Positions 17,174-31,031 of a stretch of 64,000 nucleotides of DNA are shown in pieces; the first letter of the stretch is position 1; every line of letters begins with the position of its first letter. Where the stretch lies: contig CACXNV010000001.1 of assembly GCA_902769185.1 (NCBI GenBank), positions 4,021 to 68,020 on the forward strand, in the 5' to 3' direction. Made by a program: the position numbers and the translations under genes. Source of the DNA: an uncultured Erysipelotrichaceae bacterium (GTDB taxonomy: Bacteria > Bacillota_I > Bacilli_A > RFN20 > CAG-826). The notes below the pieces were generated by a model. It had not been told where the DNA came from, made no database searches, and saw nothing but the letters and a program-made list of their open reading frames with translations.

Positions 17174-20100
17174 ATGTTTGACGTAAAAAAATTATCAGCG
17201 ATTAAAGTTGGATTAGCTTCTCCTGACACTATTAGAGCGTGGTCCCATGGTGAAGTTTTAAAACCTGAGACCATCAACTATCGTAGCCAAAAACCAGAAA
17301 TGCAAGGTTTATACTGTGAAAAGATTTTTGGTCCTGCGAAAGACTACGAATGCCATTGCGGTAAATATAAGAAAATTAGATACGCAGGCGTCGTATGTGA
17401 AAAATGTGGTGTTGAAGTTATCTCTAAAGAAGTTAGAAGAGAAAGAATGGGCCACATTGAACTTGCTAGCCCATGTACCCACATTTGGTATTTAAAAGGT
17501 ATTCCTAGCCGCATTGGATTACTTTTAGATGTTTCTCCTAAACACTTAGAAGAAGTAGCCTATTACGCTGCTCACATCTGTTTAAATCCTGGAAAGAGTA
17601 CTATTCTTACTTATCGTGAATTCATTAACGAGAAAAACGGTAGAGAAATCTTTATTCCAGTTTTAAAAGAAATCCAAGAAAAAGGAGAAGAATGGGGTTT
17701 AATCCCAGGTAGTGATGACTATGCAAGAAGTGAAGAACTTGTTGCAAGACTAGAAAATCATAACGAAGTCTTTGACTTCCAAACCTGCTACAACTTCATT
17801 CGTAAATTTACAGGTGCTGAATTCTCTGAAGGTGCTGGAGCGATTAAACGTTTACTCGCAGAAATCGATTTAGACGCTGAAGGAGAAGAAATCTCCCGTA
17901 AGATTAAAAATTCAACTTCCTCTAATAGAGCGAAGTTAACTAAAAGACTCGAAGTCATTGAGGCCTTTAGACATTCTGATAATAAACCAGAATGGATGGT
18001 CCTTGATGTTATTCCAGTGATTCCACCTGATTTAAGACCAATGTTACAACTTGATGGCGGTAGATTCGCTACAAGTGACTTGAACGATTTATATCGTAGA
18101 GTAATTTCTCGTAACAACCGTTTAAAGAAATTAATCGATATGAATTCTCCTGCTGTCTTATTAATGAATGAAAAACGTATGCTTCAAGAAGCAGTGGACG
18201 CTTTAATTGATAACGGTAGAAGAAATAAGCCAGTTACTGGTCCTGGTGGAAGACCTCTTAAATCCTTATCCTCTGGATTAAAAGGTAAACAAGGTCGATT
18301 CAGACAAAACTTACTCGGTAAACGTGTTGACTATTCTGGTCGTTCTGTTATCGCGGTTGGTCCATTCTTAAAAATGTATGAATGTGGCTTACCAAGAGAA
18401 ATGGCGGTCCAATTATTAAGACCATTTATCGCGTGCGAATTAATTAAAAGAGGTATTACTAATGCGAATAAGACCGCAGATCGAATTATCGATAGATATG
18501 ATCCTGCTGTTTTAGATATCGTTGAAGAAATTATTGGTAAGCACCCAGTTCTTCTTAACCGTGCTCCTACTTTACATAGACTTGGTATTCAAGCTTTCCA
18601 ACCACGCTTAGTCGATGGAAGAGCGATTAGATTACACCCACTCGTCTGTACAGGCTTTAACGCTGACTTCGATGGTGACCAAATGGCGGTCCATGTCCCA
18701 TTAAGTAAAGCAGCACAAGAAGAAGCATTACATTTAATGCTTGCCTCTAATAACATCTTAGGACCAAAAGATGGTAAACCAATTGTTACCCCATCTCAAG
18801 ACATGGTCTTAGGAAACTACTATTTAACTTTAGAATCCACTAAAGAAGATTTCTTAAAGAAAGCTAAAGCTTTAAAAGCTACTGATCCTGAAGAAGCAGA
18901 GAGATTTGAATTATACGCTGCTAGTGAAGGTAAAGTCTTTAGAAGCGTTGATGATGTGATTCTTGCTTATCAAACTAAGCAAATCCATTTACATAATAGA
19001 ATCGCGATTATCGGTAAGGCTTTAATGAAGAAAGGATTCACCGAAGAGATGAATAATTCTTATTTAATCACCTCTGTTGGTAAAATCATCTTCAACCAAA
19101 TCTTCCCAAGTGATTTCCCATATTTAAACGCTGTCACAGCCGAAAATATGGCTCATGATTTACCTGAATATTTCGTCCCACGTGGTAGCGATATTAAAGC
19201 AATTATTGCTAAAATGCCTGTGAGATCACCAATCAAAAAGAAAGATTTAGGAAAAATTATTAATGAAATCTTCCAAAGATATGACCGTAAAGGCAATCCA
19301 AAGACTTCATCTGTTCTTGATAAGATGAAAGACCAAGGCTTCCAATACGCGACAGTGGCTGGATTTACTATCTCAATTGACGATATTCATATCGTTGAAG
19401 GTAAAGAAGAAATCTTAGAAGCTGGCGATAAGAAAGTCGCGGAAATTCAAGAAATGTTCGAACTCGGTATGTTAACCGAAGAAGAAAGACATAAGAGCGT
19501 TTGTGACGTTTGGAACAAAGTTCTTGTGGAAGTTAGAACTAAATTAACTGAACAATTTAATAAAGATCAAAGAAACACCATCTATATGATGTCTGACTCT
19601 GGTGCTCGTGGTAATATTTCCAATATTACACAGTTAGCCGGTATGAGAGGTCTTATGGGTAACACCTCTGGTGGCACCATCGAACTCCCAGTTAAACGTT
19701 GTTTCCGTGAAGGTATGACTGTTTCTGAATTCTTTATTGCGACCCATGGTGCTCGTAAGGGTGGTGCTGATACCGCGCTTAAGACTGCTGACTCAGGTTA
19801 TTTAACTAGAAGACTTGTTGACGTCTCTCAAGACGTTATCGTTAGAGAAGTCGATTGTGGAACAGACCACGGCTTCAAAGTTAAAGAAATTAGAGATACT
19901 TCTAGAAACGCGATTATCGTTAAACTTTATGACCGTTTAGTTGGTAGGTACGCTCTTAACGATGTCGTTAATCCAAAAACTGGTGAAGTCCTTGTTAAGG
20001 GTAACACCATGATTAACGAAGAAAGCGCTAAAGCAATTGTTGACGCTGGCATTGAAGAAGTGGAAATTAGATCCTTATTCGGTTGTGAAACTAAAGATGG

Positions 20101-21079
20101 TGTCTGTATCCACTGTTATGGACGTAACCTTGCGACTGGTAGAGAAGTCCAAGTTGGTGAAGCTGTTGGTATTATGGCTGCTCAATCTATTGGTGAGCCA
20201 GGTACACAGTTAACCATGAGAACCTTCCACACTGGTGGCGTTGCTGGTAGCGATATCACTAGTGGTTTACCAAGAGTTCAAGAATTATTTGAAGCTCGTA
20301 ACCCTAAAGGTGAAGCTCTTATTTCTGAAATCCCAGGTACTATCACTAAGATTGAAGAAAAGAATGGTTGCTATTTAGTTACTGTTCGTAACGATTTAGA
20401 AGAAAAGACTTATACTACTGCCTTTGGTGCGAAATTACGTGTCAAAAAAGGCGAAAAAGTCACTAATGGTGGTAAGATCACCGAAGGTGCTATCGATCCT
20501 AAGAAATTACTCGAAGTTTCTGATGTCACTGCGGTTGAGAAATACATCATTAAAGAAGTTCAAAAAGTCTATTCCTTACAAGATATCGGAATTTCTGATA
20601 AGCACATTGAAGTAATCGTTAGACAAATGTTAAGAAAAGTCTACGTTATCGACGCTGGAGATACTGATATGATTGCGGGTACCCGTGTATCGATTAATAC
20701 CTTCACCGCGAAAAATAACGAAGCGATTATTAACGGCAAACGTCCAGCGGTCTTCTCTCCACTTATCTTAGGTATCACTAAGGCGGCTCTTGAAACTGAT
20801 TCCTTCTTATCAGCGGCTTCATTCCAAGAAACTACTAGAGTCTTGACTGACGCTGCTATTAAGGGCAAAGTTGACTACTTACATGGCTTAAAAGAAAACG
20901 TCATTACTGGACACTTAATTCCAGCCGGACGTGGACTTATGAGCGAAGAAGCTAGCGAAGAGTTATTAAAAGACTTTACTGTTGAAGGCACAATGCATGA
21001 AGTTAAAGACAAATATGTCGAAGACTATGATCGTGCAATCAACGAAATTAAAGAGAAGATTAATTCTCGTAACGCTTAA
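17174..21079 (+). CDS. rpoC: DNA-directed RNA polymerase beta' subunit
   Basis: 1301 aa. Zinc finger CHCGKYKK...CEKCG, catalytic [12 protein letters not shown], and the trigger-loop region. Confidence 0.98.
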
Positions 21080-21091
21080 TTAAACAAAATA

Positions 21092-21128
21092 ATTAACTGC
21101 TTAGATTAATTTCTAGGCAGTTTTTTAT
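21092..21128 (+). repeat. Direct repeat copy 1 (37 nt, includes the rpoC terminator)
   Basis: attaactgcttaGattaatttctaggcagttttttat recurs at 21853-21889 with one mismatch. Confidence 0.9.
21097..21126 (+). terminator. rpoBC operon terminator
   Basis: An 8-bp stem (ctgcttag / ctaggcag, with one G.U) with loop attaattt, followed by T6. Confidence 0.7.
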
Positions 21129-21209
21129 TTACATTCTAGTGTTGTCATTTATAATATAAGTGAAGCTGTAAGATAACTTAGTCAACTAGACTAGAAAGGA
21201 GATAAAGTT

Positions 21210-21455
21210 ATGTGCAATGTAAACATGTATGAAGCCAAAACGAATTTGTCGAAATACGTTGATATGATTGAAAGTGGTGAGCAAAAAGAAATTTTCTTAT
21301 GTCGTAGAGGCAAGAAAATAGCAAAAATCGTTCCTGTTGGTGAAGAATTAACAAAAAAACGATTAGGTGCTGCGATTGGAATTTTACCTAGCTTACCAGT
21401 TGGATTTGATGATCCAAAATTAGATGAAGAGATTGCTAATGACTTTAATTTATAA
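21210..21455 (+). CDS. Type II antitoxin, Phd/YefM-like
   Basis: MYEAKTNLSKYVDMIESGE..I...RGKKIAKIVP is typical of Phd/YefM N-termini. Its stop overlaps the PIN gene start (TAATG). Confidence 0.7.
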   Translation: MCNVNMYEAKTNLSKYVDMIESGEQKEIFLCRRGKKIAKIVPVGEELTKKRLGAAIGILPSLPVGFDDPKLDEEIANDFNL

Positions 21456-21850
21456 TGGAATACTTATTAGATACGAATACTCTTTTAAGAGCGTTATTTA
21501 ATGATGAGAAAATATCAGATAAAACCAGAAGCATTATCGCCAATGAGAAAAATCAAATTTTTGTTTCTATTGTTTCCATCTGGGAAATTGAGCTCAAACA
21601 TAATAAACACCCAGATTTAATGCCATATAATGCAAAAGATATCATTAACGCTCTTGTGTATACTGACTATATCGTTTTACCAGTTAGATATGAATATTTA
21701 GTAGAGCTTAAACAAGTAATTGATTTAAATATTCATAAAGACCCATTTGATCATCTACTAATTGCAACTGCGTTAGAAGAATCTATGACATTAATTACAA
21801 GCGATGAAACAATTCTAAAATATCCAATAATCTCAACATTAAAATTATGA
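21455..21850 (+). CDS. vapC: PIN-domain toxin (VapC-like ribonuclease)
   Basis: LLDTN.LL at the N-terminus, IWEIELK, DPFDHLLIATA and LITSDE, which supply the conserved acidic PIN residues. 131 aa. Confidence 0.85.
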   Translation: MEYLLDTNTLLRALFNDEKISDKTRSIIANEKNQIFVSIVSIWEIELKHNKHPDLMPYNAKDIINALVYTDYIVLPVRYEYLVELKQVIDLNIHKDPFDHLLIATALEESMTLITSDETILKYPIISTLKL

Positions 21851-21852
21851 TT

Positions 21853-21889
21853 ATTAACTGCTTAAATTAATTTCTAGGCAGTTTTTTAT
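21853..21889 (+). repeat. Direct repeat copy 2 (a duplicated rpoC terminator that now terminates the TA cassette)
   Basis: attaactgcttaAattaatttctaggcagttttttat; see 21092-21128. Confidence 0.9.
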
Positions 21890-21932
21890 GTTTATGTTGT
21901 ATACTAAAATTAAATATAAGGGGTTTTAACAT

Positions 21933-22439
21933 ATGATTTGTAAATATTGTAATAAAGAAATACCGGACGGTAGTAAATATTGCCCATTTTGTGGTGCGTA
22001 TTTAGAAGAAGTTAGTGAAACATCTGTTAATCAAATTAAAGAAGGTAGTGGACCAGTAACAAGCTCTAGTAGTCCGGAAGCAATTACGGTTGAGAATTTT
22101 AGAAGTTTACCAACTTATAAACCAAGATTAATAAAAATGGTTGTTTTTGGTGCGATTGCCTTTGTTTTTACTCTTATTGCTATGCTTGGCTCATTAATGG
22201 TGAGAATCATTGGTGGTGGTAGCCTACAAGTTCCGGGAATCATTATGCTAGCTTTTGGCTTAGCCACTGGTGTCACTTTCCTTGTACTCGCTTTATCTTT
22301 AAATAAGAAAGTATTCCCACAGGTTAACGCAATCAAAATGAAAGGAATAGAAATACTTATTCCTATATTCATCGCCTTTAGCCTTTGTTTTGCGGTTGTA
22401 TCCTTAGTCCTACAAGGATTAGTGCTAGTCATCTATTAG
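21933..22439 (+). CDS. Zinc-ribbon domain membrane protein
   Basis: N-terminal CKYC...CPFCG double knuckle, followed by four hydrophobic helices. Confidence 0.55.
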   Translation: MICKYCNKEIPDGSKYCPFCGAYLEEVSETSVNQIKEGSGPVTSSSSPEAITVENFRSLPTYKPRLIKMVVFGAIAFVFTLIAMLGSLMVRIIGGGSLQVPGIIMLAFGLATGVTFLVLALSLNKKVFPQVNAIKMKGIEILIPIFIAFSLCFAVVSLVLQGLVLVIY

Positions 22440-22514
22440 CGTATAGCCTATATACCAGCGTTATTGCTGGTTTTTTTATTATGATAAAAGTTGTAAAAAG
22501 AGTAGAATGTAGTC

Positions 22515-24479
22515 ATGAATAAACTTAACAAAGCGTGGCTACTTTTAATTGCCCCTATTTCTATTTGTTTATTTGGATGTGTCTATTCTGCACCTTTAAA
22601 AAAAGAACTTAGAATATATTCTTATCCAAACAAAACTAAGTTCGAAATAGGTGAAGCTTTCTCTAGTGAAGGTTTAGTAGTTGTTGATAATAAAACATCT
22701 GAGCGAATTACTGACTATACATCATCGTTAAATGATGGATATGTTTTCACTCAAAGTGATAAATCAGAAGCTTTTAATGTCACCATTTCTAAAGAGTCTT
22801 ATGTAGATGTTAGCTACACTATTAAAGTGGTCGCTAAAATCGCTCCAGAATTAACAAAATTAACTGCGCCAAGTATCTCGATTAATAATAATGTTGTTTC
22901 TTGGAATAGCGTCTCTCACGCTAGTGGATATCAATATTCTATTGCTGGAGAAGAAAATAAGAGTGGCTCTTTAACTTCTACTAGTTTAGATGTCTCTACT
23001 TTAAGTTTAGTGGATGGAGATTACTCCATTAGTGTTATCGCTAAAGGAGATAATGTTTATTATTCAGATTCTGATAGTAGTAATGTAGTGAATTTCTCGA
23101 TTAGTAGTCCAATTGATCCACCTAGTAATATTGATATGTCTATTTATTATATAAATGATACGCATGGTTCATTTATTCGTGATGCGAGTAATTATGAAGC
23201 GGGAATAAGCTATATTTCTAAGTATATTAAAACTCATAGAGACAACTATTCTCTTACTCTTTCAGGTGGAGATATGTTTCAAGGTGGATACGAATCCAAT
23301 GAAACTAGAGGCAAGATCATGATTGAAGCGATGAATGAAATTGGCTTTGATGCGATGTCTCTTGGTAATCATGAATTTGATTGGGGAGAAAAAGAGATTG
23401 AAACTTTCGCGGAAACTTTGGATTGCGATATCATTTCTTGTAACACTTTTTATAGTTCAGATAACGTCACTAGACCTAGTTGGCTATCTCCATACACAAT
23501 CATTCAAAAAAGCGGAGTGAAGATTGGCGTTATCGGGGCGATTCAAGAGGGTATTGAGACTTCAATTACTGGTAGTATTTCTGAAAAATTCTATTTTCCA
23601 AGTTCAAATAGTTATATTAAAGAATATTCGACCTATTTGAGAAAAGATAAAGGGTGTGACGTCATTATCGCTAGTTTTCATGATAAAGGATTTGAAGGAA
23701 GTAGTGGTGATCCTAGTAAATTTTCTGATTTAACTCAAACTGATCCATCCACTAATTTGAAATATGTTGATGCGATGTTTTTTGCACATGACCACGTTTA
23801 TAAAAAAGGCACATATAATGGTGTCCCTTATTTAGAGGCAGGATTAAACGGTAAATATATTGGTATTATGAGTTTGTCTCTTTCTTATCAAAATAACCGC
23901 TATATTGTTAGTAGTGGCTCTCCAAGTGTGATTAATGCCTATAGCGAGGCAACTACTCCAGATACCGCAATTGAAGCAATCACTCAAAAAGAAGAATACA
24001 AAGATATGATTACCCATGCAGATGATACTATTTATAATTTTGCTAATTATTATTCTAAAGAAAACTTTACTTATGTTGTTTGCCAAGCAATGTATTGGTA
24101 CGTCAACTCCCATAAGAGTGAATTTGATAACGTCACTATCTATTTTGCTAGCCATAATACAGGCGGAATTAGAAGTACAGTTGATTCTGGGGTAATGACT
24201 AGAAGAAAATTAATAAAAGTATTCCCATTTGATAATCTACTCTCAATTCAAGTATGTAATTCCACGAATATTTCAAATATGGAAGATTCTTCCTATTATC
24301 GTACTTATAAAGAAGGCGATCCTGTGTATGTTAGTGGATTAACTCACGCGGTTAGTATTTCCTATATTACTGAATATAAATACGCTCATTATTATCAACA
24401 AAGTTATAAGAATTATGACATTACCGCTAGAGCGGCATTAGTGGCTTATTTAATTAGTGGTGTGAACCCTAATTTATAG
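22515..24479 (+). CDS. Lipoprotein 5'-nucleotidase / metallophosphoesterase (UshA family) with N-terminal Ig/Fn3-like modules
   Basis: Lipobox LFGC. Metallophosphatase motifs INDTHGS, GGDMFQG, GNHEFDWG and FHD, plus a C-terminal nucleotidase-type domain. Confidence 0.8.
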   Translation: MNKLNKAWLLLIAPISICLFGCVYSAPLKKELRIYSYPNKTKFEIGEAFSSEGLVVVDNKTSERITDYTSSLNDGYVFTQSDKSEAFNVTISKESYVDVSYTIKVVAKIAPELTKLTAPSISINNNVVSWNSVSHASGYQYSIAGEENKSGSLTSTSLDVSTLSLVDGDYSISVIAKGDNVYYSDSDSSNVVNFSISSPIDPPSNIDMSIYYINDTHGSFIRDASNYEAGISYISKYIKTHRDNYSLTLSGGDMFQGGYESNETRGKIMIEAMNEIGFDAMSLGNHEFDWGEKEIETFAETLDCDIISCNTFYSSDNVTRPSWLSPYTIIQKSGVKIGVIGAIQEGIETSITGSISEKFYFPSSNSYIKEYSTYLRKDKGCDVIIASFHDKGFEGSSGDPSKFSDLTQTDPSTNLKYVDAMFFAHDHVYKKGTYNGVPYLEAGLNGKYIGIMSLSLSYQNNRYIVSSGSPSVINAYSEATTPDTAIEAITQKEEYKDMITHADDTIYNFANYYSKENFTYVVCQAMYWYVNSHKSEFDNVTIYFASHNTGGIRSTVDSGVMTRRKLIKVFPFDNLLSIQVCNSTNISNMEDSSYYRTYKEGDPVYVSGLTHAVSISYITEYKYAHYYQQSYKNYDITARAALVAYLISGVNPNL

Positions 24480-24519: not shown

Positions 24520-24598
24520 TGCCAAAATGGCAAATTTACATAAATTATAATATGCCAAAATGGTAACTTTAATGTTGACAAGATATGCCAAAATGGTA
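24520..24598 (+). promoter_or_regulatory. Three phased palindromic operator boxes overlapping the MNT/HEPN promoter
   Basis: TGCCAAAATGGCA at 24520, and TGCCAAAATGGTA at 24553 and 24586, with exactly 33-bp spacing. TTGACA at 24575-24580 lies between boxes 2 and 3. Confidence 0.55.
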
Positions 24599-24610
24599 AA
24601 TTATAAGTGT

Positions 24611-25078
24611 ATGAATTTAGTAGAGATTAGAAAACGTAATGGATTAACACAAAAAGAAGCGGCGACTATGCTCGGCATTCCATATCGTACTTATATCCGC
24701 TATGAAGAAAATGAGACGTATGCGGACTCATATAAGTATAAGATGATAACTGAAAAACTTTATGATTTATTAAAAATCGATGAAGAACACGGCATATTAT
24801 CATTAGATAAAATAAAAGAATTATTGCTTCCAATTTTAAAATCAAAAAATATTGCAAAATGTTATCTATTTGGCAGTTATGCACGTAATGAGGCAAGAGA
24901 AAATAGTGATGTCGATTTACTTATAGATACAAATATTACAGGATTAGATTTTTTTAACCTAGCAGAGGAAATGAGAGTTGTATTAAAGAAAAAAATCGAC
25001 TTAGTTAGGCTAAAAGATCTACGCGCTGATAACCCGATTATCTTAGAAATATTGAAGGAAGGTATTAGATTAATATGA
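24611..25078 (+). CDS. XRE-type HTH fused to a minimal nucleotidyltransferase (MNT antitoxin of a HEPN/MNT pair)
   Basis: IRKRNGLTQKEAATMLGIPYRTYIRYE (HTH_3), then YLFGSYARNEARENSDVDLLID (GSxx...DxD NTase motif). The track start at 24560 lies inside operator box 2, so I prefer the ATG at 24611. Confidence 0.8.
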   Translation: MNLVEIRKRNGLTQKEAATMLGIPYRTYIRYEENETYADSYKYKMITEKLYDLLKIDEEHGILSLDKIKELLLPILKSKNIAKCYLFGSYARNEARENSDVDLLIDTNITGLDFFNLAEEMRVVLKKKIDLVRLKDLRADNPIILEILKEGIRLI

Positions 25079-25419
25079 TTGAACAAACAGATTATAGAAT
25101 TATCTCAATGATGATTGAAAAAGCGAATAGAATAATAGAAATCTATTCAAAAAATGGAAGAGATAGAATTCAAAATGAATATATTCTTAGCGATGCATTG
25201 CAATTCGAATTTGAAAAAATGTATGAAGATAGCACTAGGCTTTCTGTTGAATTTAGATTAAATCACCCTTGGTTACACATCGATAAGCTAAGAGGAATAC
25301 GAAATCGAGTTGCCCATAATTATGAAAGTGTAAGTTTAAGCATTTTGCTTGATACAGCAGAAAATGATATTCCTATACTAAAGCAGTTGCTTGAAAAAGC
25401 GCTAAATGAAAAAGAATAA
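25075..25419 (+). CDS. HEPN-domain (DUF86) toxin
   Basis: R-x4-H motif in RGIRNRVAHNYESV, 114 aa, and an ATGA start/stop overlap with the MNT gene. Confidence 0.8.
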   Translation: MIEQTDYRIISMMIEKANRIIEIYSKNGRDRIQNEYILSDALQFEFEKMYEDSTRLSVEFRLNHPWLHIDKLRGIRNRVAHNYESVSLSILLDTAENDIPILKQLLEKALNEKE

Positions 25420-25613
25420 TTTGAGAAAATGTTGCCTGAAATAAGGTGGCATTTTCATTTTTACAAATTTATTGTAGCTTGAAACACTTAATTCCGTTTC
25501 TTGCTGGAAAACAAGCTTGTAAATAGAATTTAGTCTTTCAAAATATTTTTTTAATTCAGAAAACGGAATTTAGTTCTTCAAGTTATATAAATAAAAATTT
25601 TTTCATTTTTTTG

Positions 25614-25641
25614 TTGCGCGATTTTTTTACCTATATATAAT
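25614..25641 (+). promoter_or_regulatory. Putative promoter of the rpsL-rpsG-fusA-tuf operon
   Basis: TTGCGC, 16 nt spacer, TATAAT, followed by a roughly 125-nt leader containing hairpins (cgtgt/acacg, gacc/ggtc). Confidence 0.4.
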
Positions 25642-25769
25642 ATATGAGCGTGTGAAATTGGAACACGTTGACCGTTGAGGTCGCTTTTTTAAGGAAAGAA
25701 GCCGACACACCCGGTAACGTGGACAAATTCACAAGTCAAAAACTAATAAGTAATTGAAAGGAGCAATAT

Positions 25770-30064: not shown

Positions 30065-30083
30065 TTTAGTTAACGTATTAATC

Positions 30084-30112
30084 AATTAGGAGATTCTTCG
30101 GAGTCTCCTTTT
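30084..30112 (+). repeat. Direct repeat copy 1 (29 nt, includes the tuf terminator)
   Basis: aattaggagattcttcggagtctcctttt is identical to 30642-30670. Confidence 0.92.
30088..30112 (+). terminator. tuf terminator (UUCG tetraloop hairpin)
   Basis: aggagattc-TTCG-gagtctcct, 9 bp with one G.U, followed by ttt. Confidence 0.8.
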
Positions 30113-30143: not shown

Positions 30144-30632
30144 ATGAATGTTGAAGAAGCAAAAGAAAAAGTCAAAAAACGTGAAGATGAGACTACTAAC
30201 GCTGCCATTGAAGTAATGATTGATTCATTTAATGAACAGGATGAACCGATGGTTGGCCCTTTTTGGTATGATCCTGATAAAAAAGAAATATACGGACAAG
30301 TAGTTGCATTAGCAAAAGATAGACCATTTTATTATTCGCATTCTTGGAATAAAGAAGTAAGAACTGGTTCTGCTCTTCATAAATCAATTTGGGAAAGAGA
30401 ATATTTTAGGCACAAAGATCATAGATTTTCTGGAGATTATACTCAAAAACCAAGAGGTAGAGTGTTTGAATTTAAAGATGAAGGATTTAAAGTGTTTGTT
30501 GGCGAGTGGATAAATAAATATCCAGAGGCAAAAGATGAAATATTATTTGAATTTCAGCTTCCTAAAGATAACACAGAATTTGTAATTGATGAACACTGGG
30601 ATATTGGACACGGTTGGAGTCAAGAATTCTAA
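30144..30632 (+). CDS. Hypothetical 162-aa protein; I recognised no family
   Basis: Long ORF with host-like codon usage and a Trp/His-rich sequence (GPFWYD, HSWNKE, HWDIGHGW). It is bracketed by duplicated tuf terminators. Confidence 0.55.
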   Translation: MNVEEAKEKVKKREDETTNAAIEVMIDSFNEQDEPMVGPFWYDPDKKEIYGQVVALAKDRPFYYSHSWNKEVRTGSALHKSIWEREYFRHKDHRFSGDYTQKPRGRVFEFKDEGFKVFVGEWINKYPEAKDEILFEFQLPKDNTEFVIDEHWDIGHGWSQEF

Positions 30633-30641
30633 AATATGATA

Positions 30642-30670
30642 AATTAGGAGATTCTTCGGAGTCTCCTTTT
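30642..30670 (+). repeat. Direct repeat copy 2 (duplicated tuf terminator)
   Basis: A perfect 29-nt copy of 30084-30112. Confidence 0.92.
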
Positions 30671-30725: not shown

Positions 30726-31031
30726 ATGAATCAATATGAAAATTGTACATTCATGATTGATTATCAACTTAAAAAAGAAGTATATCCAATTCTAAAAGAA
30801 CTTAATATCTCACCTATGATGTTGATTAATTCTTTATTTTTGGAGATAATCAAAACAAGAAAAGTACCTTTTGAATCTAGATTTGAAACAAAACCACCTA
30901 TTGACTCAAGCAAATTAAGTGATAAAGAAATTATGGAACTTATTCAAGATGGTATTGATGATGTTAAAAACGGCAGAATGTATACTATTGAAGAGTTGAA
31001 AAAAATCATTGAGGACAATTTAGGGCTCTAA
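30726..31031 (+). CDS. RelB/DinJ-family antitoxin-like protein (no adjacent toxin)
   Basis: N-terminus F.ID..LK.E...IL.ELNISPMMLINSLFLEIIKTRKVPFE matches the DinJ ribbon-helix-helix pattern. The AAGGAG RBS is good, and TTGAGA-17-TAAAAT lies upstream. Confidence 0.55.
   Translation: MNQYENCTFMIDYQLKKEVYPILKELNISPMMLINSLFLEIIKTRKVPFESRFETKPPIDSSKLSDKEIMELIQDGIDDVKNGRMYTIEELKKIIEDNLGL

Follow-up and report, generated by a model that had tools for sequence, protein, structure and literature searches.

A Phd-VapC toxin-antitoxin (TA) cassette lies directly downstream of rpoC in an uncultured Erysipelotrichaceae bacterium, between two copies of the terminator of the rpoBC operon. The window, by which we mean the whole stretch of 64,000 nucleotides analysed here, belongs to contig CACXNV010000001.1 (assembly GCA_902769185.1), and its host setting is a bovine gut or rumen metagenome. 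The last gene of the rpoBC operon, rpoC (17174-21079; 1301 aa), was assigned from the list of open reading frames (ORFs) and from the genes of a related locus, L193, which carry precomputed RNA_pol_Rpb1 domains. It is followed by a first terminator copy, T1 (21089-21128), by the genes phd (21210-21455) and vapC (21455-21850), by a second terminator copy, T2 (21850-21889), and by a resident gene for a zinc-ribbon membrane protein (21933-22439), all on the plus strand. No gene other than phd and vapC lies between the two copies. The stretch from 20300 to 22600 is present without any difference in one public run.

Comparisons were made with loci from relatives, which are given L-numbers here and which come from metagenome-assembled genomes (MAGs) labelled Bacillales, Bacilli or Erysipelotrichaceae. 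Eighty of these loci were anchored on RpoC, the C-terminal 150 aa of the protein serving as query, and a second terminator copy was sought within 14 kb in each.

The duplicated rpoC terminator

The 37-mer ATTAACTGCTTAGATTAATTTCTAGGCAGTTTTTTAT at 21092-21128 recurs at 21853-21889 with a single mismatch, G to A at 21867, and ungapped extension lengthens the repeat to 40 nt (21089-21128 and 21850-21889; 95% identical). A preliminary description of this DNA had reported the 37-nt repeat, its one substitution and its inclusion of the rpoC terminator, and all three are borne out by repeat scanning and folding. No further match to the 37-mer with up to three mismatches exists on either strand of the window, and none is expected from 100 shuffles.

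T1 starts 10 nt past the rpoC stop codon. It consists of a hairpin (21095-21122) with an 11-bp stem and a 6-nt loop, followed by the T-run TTTTTTAT, and scores as terminator-like. The 28-nt hairpin folds at -14.5 kcal/mol, and its 51-nt context at -19.8 kcal/mol (z = -8.1). A G+C-containing hairpin followed by a T-run just 3' of a stop codon is what defines an intrinsic terminator; a search for known RNA families between 20900 and 22600 returned nothing at E <= 1. The first base of T2 is the last base of the vapC stop codon, and its hairpin spans 21856-21883. The G-to-A change in T2 is private to this genome, every other strain having G at that position. It had been thought to weaken the second hairpin by one base pair; the hairpin is indeed weakened, from -14.5 to -8.2 kcal/mol, through the loss of two predicted stem pairs rather than one.

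The terminator stem is preserved across lineages through compensatory changes. The exact 28-nt hairpin occurs in 4 of about 185,000 species genomes, each time at the rpoC locus and with no copies elsewhere; it is therefore not a dispersed repeat, in line with the expectation that the 37-mer is not a repetitive extragenic palindromic (REP) sequence. Dispersed palindromes of the REP or bacterial interspersed mosaic element type are ruled out by this confinement. The window holds 68 terminator-like hairpins, among which only the rpoC pair and a second pair downstream of tuf are paralogous, at scores of 36 and 30, where the background is 6.9 +/- 1.8. The 37/40-nt repeat has genuinely arisen by duplication of the intrinsic terminator of the local rpoBC operon.

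In metatranscriptome contigs of related strains, rpoC is covered at a depth of 46-62 and coverage ends at or before T1, while phd and vapC are covered at a depth of 2-4, a drop of about 20-fold. A vapC contig ends at 21855, at T2. Copy 1 would end rpoC transcription and so shield the cassette, and copy 2 would end the cassette transcript before the next gene. These RNA contigs fit such roles, with strong read-through from rpoBC kept away from a tightly autoregulated TA promoter by copy 1 and the downstream gene protected by copy 2.

The Phd-VapC cassette

The two cassette genes have the layout of a type II Phd/YefM-VapC system: they are small and co-oriented, the antitoxin gene comes first, and the pair has its own promoter. 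The phd stop codon and the vapC start codon overlap in the sequence TAATG. VapC (131 aa) matches the PIN domain family PF01850 at 44.7 bits against a cut-off of 23.6, and its acidic residues D6, E44, D99 and D117 are invariant among 11 homologues. Phd (81 aa) matches the Phd/YefM family PF02604 with E = 1.3e-4; this match of 22.1 bits lies below the gathering score of 29.8 and covers the N-terminal 41 residues only, and NCBIfam gives no match. VapC is predicted to be the toxin and Phd the antitoxin. As a TA pair, the cassette is in itself ordinary.

A promoter with an 11/12 match to consensus, TTTACA-16-TATAAT, lies at 21128-21155 on the plus strand, its -35 box directly adjoining the T-run of T1. 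The pair and its promoter region are thus held between the two terminator copies, as the preliminary description had it. The same promoter layout is found in L010, L166 and L171, and RNA contigs start close to the promoter, at 21186 and 21218. In the 5' untranslated region, at 21177-21200 on the plus strand, the element CTTAGTCAACTAGACTAGAAAGGA combines the palindrome TAGTC-N5-GACTA with the ribosome-binding site. It is identical in L010, although the Phd and VapC proteins there are only 59% and 39% identical to those of the window, and variants of it occur in L166, L175 and L176. The cassette leader as a whole (21162-21200; GAAGCTGTAAGATAACTTAGTCAACTAGACTAGAAAGGA) is near-invariant between cassettes whose proteins share only 39-59% identity, and variants of TTAGTCAAC.AGAC.A accompany homologous cassettes at other loci. 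The palindromic element is probably the operator of the pair. Among genome contigs the exact 24-mer occurs at rpoC loci only, while searches with the proteins did reveal homologues at other loci.

An origin of the cassette from phage was considered and rejected, as viral contigs hold no relatives of VapC. Neither the repeat scan nor reading of the sequence revealed an inverted repeat joining the two inner ends of the repeat copies.

States of the rpoC slot in related genomes

Across the 80 RpoC-anchored loci, a second terminator copy is present only where an insert fills the slot between rpoC and the resident downstream gene. The contents of the slot vary widely. L008 and L009 share the state of the window, in which phd-vapC (allele A1) lies between two copies of the terminator variant T, recognised by its loop TTAATT and characteristic of the window clade. 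L007 has the same arrangement, except that 7 of the 37 positions of T1 differ, compensatory changes among them. L170 has a canonical T1 followed by a different allele, A2, in which VapC is 58% identical and Phd has another C-terminus, while the promoter, leader and Phd N-terminus are identical to those of A1. In L005 and L086 only a 46-aa Phd-like remnant remains between the two T copies. L006 and L087 have a clean empty site with a single terminator, in which the left flank of T1 is joined to the right flank of T2.

Beyond the window clade, L010, whose rpoC is about 86% identical, carries a diverged orthologous phd-vapC pair between two copies of a variant T', in which three stem pairs have been changed in a compensatory manner in both copies. 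L088 carries a full-length gene for Phd alone between two copies of a variant T'', which has the stem of T and the loop GAAA. Each of these three lineages therefore has its own terminator variant doubled around a Phd-type cassette.

The state before insertion is best represented by the cassette-free outgroups L014 and L017. Both have one orthologous rpoC terminator with compensatory changes in the outer stem; in L014 it reads AACCTCTTAGA-loop-TCTAGGAGGTT and is followed by a gene for a small membrane protein and then by rpsL, and L017 is similar. Judged from these alignments, the duplicated hairpin is the ancestral local terminator of rpoC. An empty site with one terminator had been anticipated in relatives that lack the cassette, and such sites are indeed found in L006 and L087 as well as in the outgroups. 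In the rpoC tree, however, strains with the empty site or the remnant allele branch within groups of carriers. Among the closest relatives, an empty site is therefore most simply regarded as a later loss between the repeats, and it is the outgroups that show the state before insertion.

A second case downstream of tuf, and further cases

The suggestion that other genes flanked by duplicated terminators should be sought was fruitful, and the first such case lies in the window itself. The whole-window repeat scan found two copies of the terminator of tuf, which encodes EF-Tu, 558 nt apart: copy 1 at 30081-30112 (hairpin 30088-30109) and copy 2 at 30639-30670 (hairpin 30646-30667), identical at 31 of 32 positions. 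Between them lies orf162 (30144-30632), a 162-aa ORF with no assigned function; all three are on the plus strand. The orf162 product belongs to a large unnamed family of more than 140 homologue clusters and has no Pfam or NCBIfam match. Its AlphaFold2 model is confident (pLDDT 91), with no fold match in the PDB above a TM-score of 0.3.

The tuf hairpin is found in 5 species genomes, each time at tuf. In seven related MAG loci (L007, L008 and L188-L192) the tuf terminator is single with a relB-like gene directly 3' of it, and these are therefore empty sites for the orf162 insert. The hairpin is also single in L013-L016. L184 holds an array, tuf-T-orf162-T-relB/yafQ-T, where T here stands for the tuf terminator: an orf162 orthologue lies between perfect 34-nt copies, and a third copy follows relB-yafQ. 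At tuf, too, the lineages differ in the variant that they have doubled: L184 has ATTATT-AGGAG in the first two copies and ATAAT-AGGAG in the third, as against (C/A)AATT-AGGAG in both copies of the window. In L181 (2990-3020), L182 and L183 a remodelled hairpin, CGAGTCTCAAGTGAGACTC, follows orf162 in place of the expected copy of the tuf terminator, with which it shares one arm and the tail TTTTATTT.

In the window itself, a gene for a RelB/DinJ-like antitoxin at 30726-31031 has no toxin gene adjacent to it. At the same position, L007 and L184 have other alleles with ParE/RelE-like or YafQ partners.

Further cases are found at greater distance. In L083 a different tuf terminator is doubled (24/25 identical) around a 2.3-kb two-gene insert, and in L089 twin hairpins, identical in stem and tail but not in loop, enclose a phd-PIN pair at another locus. 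A search for related Phd-VapC cassettes that carry the 37-mer elsewhere had also been suggested. Homologues of the window cassette do occur at other loci, namely a K+-channel locus and L011, but the terminators that flank them share stems only. In all, the cargo found between duplicated terminators comprises Phd-VapC alleles A1 and A2, Phd-only genes and remnants, orf162, relB-yafQ, the L083 two-gene insert and the L089 phd-PIN pair. The terminator of the host itself is duplicated where there are inserts, and this recurs with unrelated cargo and unrelated hairpins.

Exchange of the cassette between lineages

The cassette is more similar between lineages than the genes around it. Between the window and L008, the 3' part of rpoC is 90.8% identical, the cassette 97.6% and the downstream gene region 73%, and the pairs window-L007 and L007-L008 show the same pattern; among lineages the cassette is 97-98% identical as against 91-93% for rpoC. 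In the comparison with L008, mismatches stop after 21085-21087, none occurs from 21088 to 21232, and the first beyond T2 is at 21890. The high-identity tract therefore has the same extent as the stretch from T1 to T2.

The same contrast is found at third codon positions, where identity between the window and L008 is 91.5% in phd and 96.2% in vapC, as against 79.6% in rpoB, 77.3% in rpoC, 81.8% in fusA and 67.5% in the zinc-ribbon gene (Fisher p = 5e-10; p <= 3e-5 in four other pairs). A weakly expressed TA pair is not expected to exceed rpoB, rpoC and fusA in synonymous conservation, so the cassette is younger than the split between the lineages. As the tract of identity runs from repeat to repeat, the cassette is exchanged as one unit. 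On the strength of these identity patterns, the cassette has moved between lineages, bounded by the repeats. In this genome it was probably not inserted de novo; it is an exchangeable repeat-to-repeat unit that the lineages have in common. Loss, allele replacement and horizontal exchange are all bounded by the repeats.

Origin of the duplicated terminators

The preliminary description took the arrangement for an insertion scar in which the cassette entered at the terminator and the target was duplicated. Part of this stands, since the second copy does duplicate the local terminator and goes with the insert. De novo insertion at this very site is improbable, though, and duplication through a staggered cut is one of several possible routes; among related cassettes, those of L176 and L007 have unlike terminator pairs, and that of L175 has no upstream terminator.

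The reading that we prefer, and on which we consider the evidence to be evenly poised, is that accessory cassettes enter just 3' of the rpoBC and tuf terminators and that insertion copies the whole terminator in a manner resembling target duplication. Under this proposal, the points of entry in this uncultured clade of rumen Bacilli would lie directly behind the terminators of highly conserved operons. Insertion would copy a few upstream bases, the hairpin and the T-run (25-40 nt in all), which would amount to a very long target-site duplication, and the insert would then have a copy of the host's terminator on either side. Most likely, a structure-directed enzyme supplied in trans would make staggered cuts on both sides of the hairpin, and the gaps would then be filled in; alternatively, the copy could be made when replication switches template at the stalled hairpin. 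Thereafter the repeats would bound cassette loss, which leaves one copy, as well as allele replacement and horizontal spread. That the terminator copy is made by the insertion event itself is what we infer from the association. The cassettes encode no inserting enzyme, and the duplicative cleavage step is therefore a proposal.

A broader version, which we put forward only tentatively, is that rumen Bacilli with reduced genomes have a general means of acquiring cassettes without a cassette-encoded recombinase, with the terminators of conserved operons as docking sites and a new terminator copy made every time a cassette is inserted. Repeated insertion would then build terminator-separated arrays, integron-like in function, with the repeats mediating loss, swapping and spread, and the trans-acting enzyme would recognise the structure of the hairpin.

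Several observations weigh against insertion with terminator copying. In L176-L179 a homologous cassette after rpoC has a foreign terminator upstream and the resident one downstream, in L175 the cassette has no upstream terminator at all, in L018 the second copy is absent, and the T1 of L007 has diverged as described. Neither the cassettes nor the window ORFs of at least 130 aa include a transposase, integrase or reverse transcriptase, and inspection of the junctions by eye gave no terminal inverted repeats or shared end motif at the cassette edges. The element found in T2 of L197 is inserted inside the hairpin and not around it, as far as the contig extends. The cassettes of L010 and the window share their promoter, operator and junction layout, which could reflect a single old insertion whose repeats were later homogenised. 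In four bovine metagenomes no joints that skip the cassette were found, although assembler contigs break at the repeat, and no insertion or excision event was seen in those contigs. Finally, all of the relatives are metagenome assemblies, the search for enzymes covered the ORFs of the 64-kb window, and the RNA evidence is at the level of contigs from related strains.

The elements that do encode a transposase offer a partial parallel. In L197 (791-905) and L199, where VapC is identical, a DDE-type element interrupts T2 after ...CTGCTTAG. The transposase-like ORF of L197 has a precomputed HTH_38 domain and a weak match to rve_3 (E = 0.066; truncated product). The window has a 115-nt copy resembling a miniature inverted-repeat transposable element (MITE) at 25473-25587, 12 nt past the HepT terminator, with inverted ends of about 24 nt, TGTA[A/G]CTTGAA..AATTCCGTT, and the same element end is present in the L197 and L199 insertions in T2. 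By analogy, a link between this DDE-type element and cassette duplication may be considered as precedent and opportunity only.

The explanation that competes best, although we regard it as unlikely, is site-specific recombination directed by the hairpin, in the manner of integrons or cis-mobilisable elements (CIMEs), in which a cassette with one terminator would leave as a circle, through recombination between the two hairpins, and be put back at a terminator by a structure-recognising recombinase encoded elsewhere, and arrays would grow by accretion. It would account for the direct repeats around each insert and the one copy at empty sites, for the three-copy array of L184 and the co-orientation of all cassettes, for the identity island that stops at the repeats, and for a T2 left edge, TAATTACTGC, that the Phd-only cassettes of L005 and L088 have in common despite host-specific loops. 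TA cassettes with their own promoters are, moreover, typical integron cargo. The repeats are also uniform per species, as described for chromosomal integrons (PMC13638679). This model meets difficulty with the hairpin, a plain perfect 11-bp stem with a T-run that has no R''-L''/L'-R' layout, extrahelical bases or GTTRRRY core, and with the window ORFs of at least 130 aa, which include no integrase. Insertion of the Campbell type leaves the host site uncopied and does not by itself explain why the host variant is found in both copies; and with hairpin sequences as many as those of rpoC, tuf, L083 and L089, recognition would have to be by structure alone.

It is distinctly unlikely, in our judgement, that a single ancient insertion brought in a cassette with its own terminators and that gene conversion between the neighbouring hairpins then made them alike. 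The promoter, operator and junction positions common to L010 and the window would follow naturally from such a history, as would the three compensatory stem changes that L010 shows in both copies; the pairs at the K+-channel locus and L011 and the remodelled L181 hairpin look like intermediates. Conversion requires an initial similarity which it does not create, however, and tracts of 25-40 nt at best just reach the length that RecA-dependent exchange usually needs. Copies of the local terminator around unrelated cargo at two operons, and in the distant L083 and L089, are left unexplained, unlike pairs persist in L176 and L007, and the cassette postdates the separation of the lineages.

Homology-facilitated illegitimate recombination after DNA uptake has the merit that no special enzyme is needed. 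With rpoC or tuf as the homologous anchor, donor DNA would bring in the cassette together with its own terminator, which would become the upstream copy, and the illegitimate join would lie just 5' of the recipient's terminator, which would become the downstream copy. The accumulation of inserts behind the most conserved genes would be explained, as would the diverged T1 of L007 and the pairs in which the upstream terminator is foreign and the downstream one resident (L176-L179 compared with L089 and L090). The identity into rpoC that it predicts is not seen: in the window-L008 comparison the tract starts no more than 2 nt from the edge of the repeat, and between the window and L007 rpoC shows no more than its normal level of identity (about 92-95%) as far as about 21050. 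The join would also have to hit a gap of 10-20 nt repeatedly, and transfers within a lineage would use both flanks and give no duplication. We consider this route improbable.

That the terminator was duplicated in tandem first, and the gap later became a safe landing site for cassettes, is very improbable. Tandem terminators are common after strong operons, and the distant gut relative L161 (4470-5260) has a tandem unit of about 394 nt that comprises the whole spacer downstream of rpoC, including the terminator. However, a single copy is present at L006, L087, L014, L017 and the tuf empty sites, with no adjacent pair at any of them, and the L184 array would require repeated duplication before each insertion. 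A dispersed REP-like repeat, chance or an assembly artefact is refuted by the two copies in 64 kb where none is expected, by exact hairpins only at rpoC (4 genomes) and tuf (5 genomes), by the recurrence of the structure in independent assemblies from several projects, and by the public run that is identical over 20300-22600.

Relation to known systems

The closest known phenomenon is terminator duplication of the kind associated with IS1630, an insertion sequence (IS) of the IS30 family from Mycoplasma fermentans, whereas the closest logic is that of integron arrays and of the minimal mobile elements of Neisseria. IS1630 copies are described as flanked by duplications of 16-26 bp (PMC3317919), and according to the title of Calcutt et al. 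(1999) the element targets and duplicates inverted repeats. As in the present case, a whole terminator inverted repeat of variable sequence is duplicated, the duplication is well beyond ordinary target-site length (16-26 bp for IS1630, 25-40 nt here), and the hosts are low-GC members of the Mollicutes/Bacilli lineage; here, too, a DDE-type element lands in or next to terminators. The duplicated repeats of IS1630 are reportedly derived from rho-independent terminators. The direct repeats around the present cassettes are whole inverted repeats that come from the terminator of the neighbouring gene. Unlike IS1630, no cassette has an IS30-family transposase or 27-bp terminal inverted repeats, and the insert is a gene cassette that opens with a promoter and closes with a stop codon. 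In the IS1630 literature no description was found of alternative cargo, of arrays or of horizontal exchange from repeat to repeat. A classical insertion sequence or transposon was rejected, there being no transposase and no terminal inverted repeats between the copies.

Integron cassettes and their attC sites, including clusters of attC sites lacking integrases (CALINs), resemble the present arrangement in their promoter-bearing TA cassettes, direct imperfect-palindrome repeats, arrays, single site after loss and species-uniform repeats. They differ in that IntI is absent here from the window ORFs of at least 130 aa, that the site is the 3' end of housekeeping operons and not attI, and that the hairpin is an intrinsic terminator inherited from a cassette-free ancestor, without R and L boxes or extrahelical bases. 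Identity with attC was rejected from a reading of 21089-21128, in which the flanks AATTAAC and GTTTTTT do not fit RYYYAAC and GTTRRRY.

In the minimal mobile elements of Neisseria, different cassettes are found between conserved flanking genes through homologous recombination (PMC1797815, PMC3787668). The spacers between rpoC and rpsL and downstream of tuf likewise hold strain-variable whole-gene cassettes that are exchanged, but the unit here is bounded by short duplicated terminators, and identity stops there and not in the flanking genes. Genomic islands and CIMEs are similar in their direct repeats of tens of bases that copy the 3' end of the target, their tandem arrays and their frequent TA remnants; the units here are only 0.2-2.3 kb long, show no trace of integration or transfer genes and use many target hairpins. 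The pdif modules of Acinetobacter plasmids, which are acted on by XerC/D, have a 28-nt site of 11-6-11 geometry that flanks TA and resistance modules. In the present case, the loop varies from 4 to 6 nt between lineages, the repeats are direct and not inverted, and the site has a T-run and is the terminator of a gene, not dif-like. A Xer/dif-like site was rejected from the sequence and the empty sites.

Class C group II introns insert right after intrinsic terminator hairpins, and Cas1-type integrases, which act on CRISPR repeats and in casposons, attack a palindromic unit of about 30 nt at staggered positions on either side and so duplicate it. Either may serve as an analogy only, as the window, which was searched, holds no intron RNA, reverse transcriptase or Cas1. 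A palindrome element derived from IS200/IS605 would leave an empty site with no hairpin and was rejected, since L006 and L087 keep one. The cassettes fail the defining tests of each of the main comparators, having neither transposase nor inverted ends, neither attC nor IntI, and a unit bounded by repeats and not by flanking genes. Full-text searches of the literature did not find transposase-free gene cassettes bracketed by duplicated terminators described.

Other features of the rpoC-rpsL spacer

In this genome the order of genes from rpoC to rpsL is the TA cassette, the zinc-ribbon membrane protein gene, a gene for a 5'-nucleotidase-like protein and an HTH-MNT/HepT pair. The spacer ranges from about 0.27 to 6.8 kb across the 80 relatives and is therefore a hot spot for accessory genes. 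No terminator-repeat borders were found at the other insertions and deletions of the spacer, which are those of the 5'-nucleotidase gene, the MNT-HepT pair and a lipoprotein gene of L009.

The zinc-ribbon gene has its own, unrelated terminator at 22454-22471. It lies behind T2 in L005 and L007-L009. In L006 and L087, the two strains with an empty site, it lies behind the only terminator copy and is a pseudogene (3918-4200 in L006), carrying deletions and an in-frame stop codon.

Two copies of ATATGCCAAAATGG(C/T)AA lie upstream of the HTH-MNT/HepT TA pair (24520-25419). In L007 (8870-8925) these repeats are kept while the HTH-MNT/HepT genes are gone, as in a plain deletion scar, and in L088 the repeats lie directly 3' of T2. 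In L015 (8149-8440) the spacer contains a unit of about 108 nt three times in tandem, and every unit includes a hairpin (GGAAGTAG..CTACTTCC) and a T-run. The leader of rpsL (25600-25769) contains hairpins and is 98-99% identical across lineages in which rpoC is only 91% identical, which suggests that it may be a conserved regulatory leader.

Significance

If cassettes do enter behind terminators that are copied in the process, new genes would be able to enter a compact genome without disturbing the transcription of their neighbours, being insulated on both sides. This would help to explain the build-up of TA and other accessory genes behind rpoC and tuf. Adjacent paralogous terminators would then be a simple signature of recent insertions, both in genomes and in MAGs, and for annotation a repeated terminator beside a housekeeping operon would mark the boundary of a cassette and not a REP element or an assembly error. 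The arrangement would also point to a structure-directed insertion activity in these bacteria, either related to or distinct from transposases of the IS1630 type.

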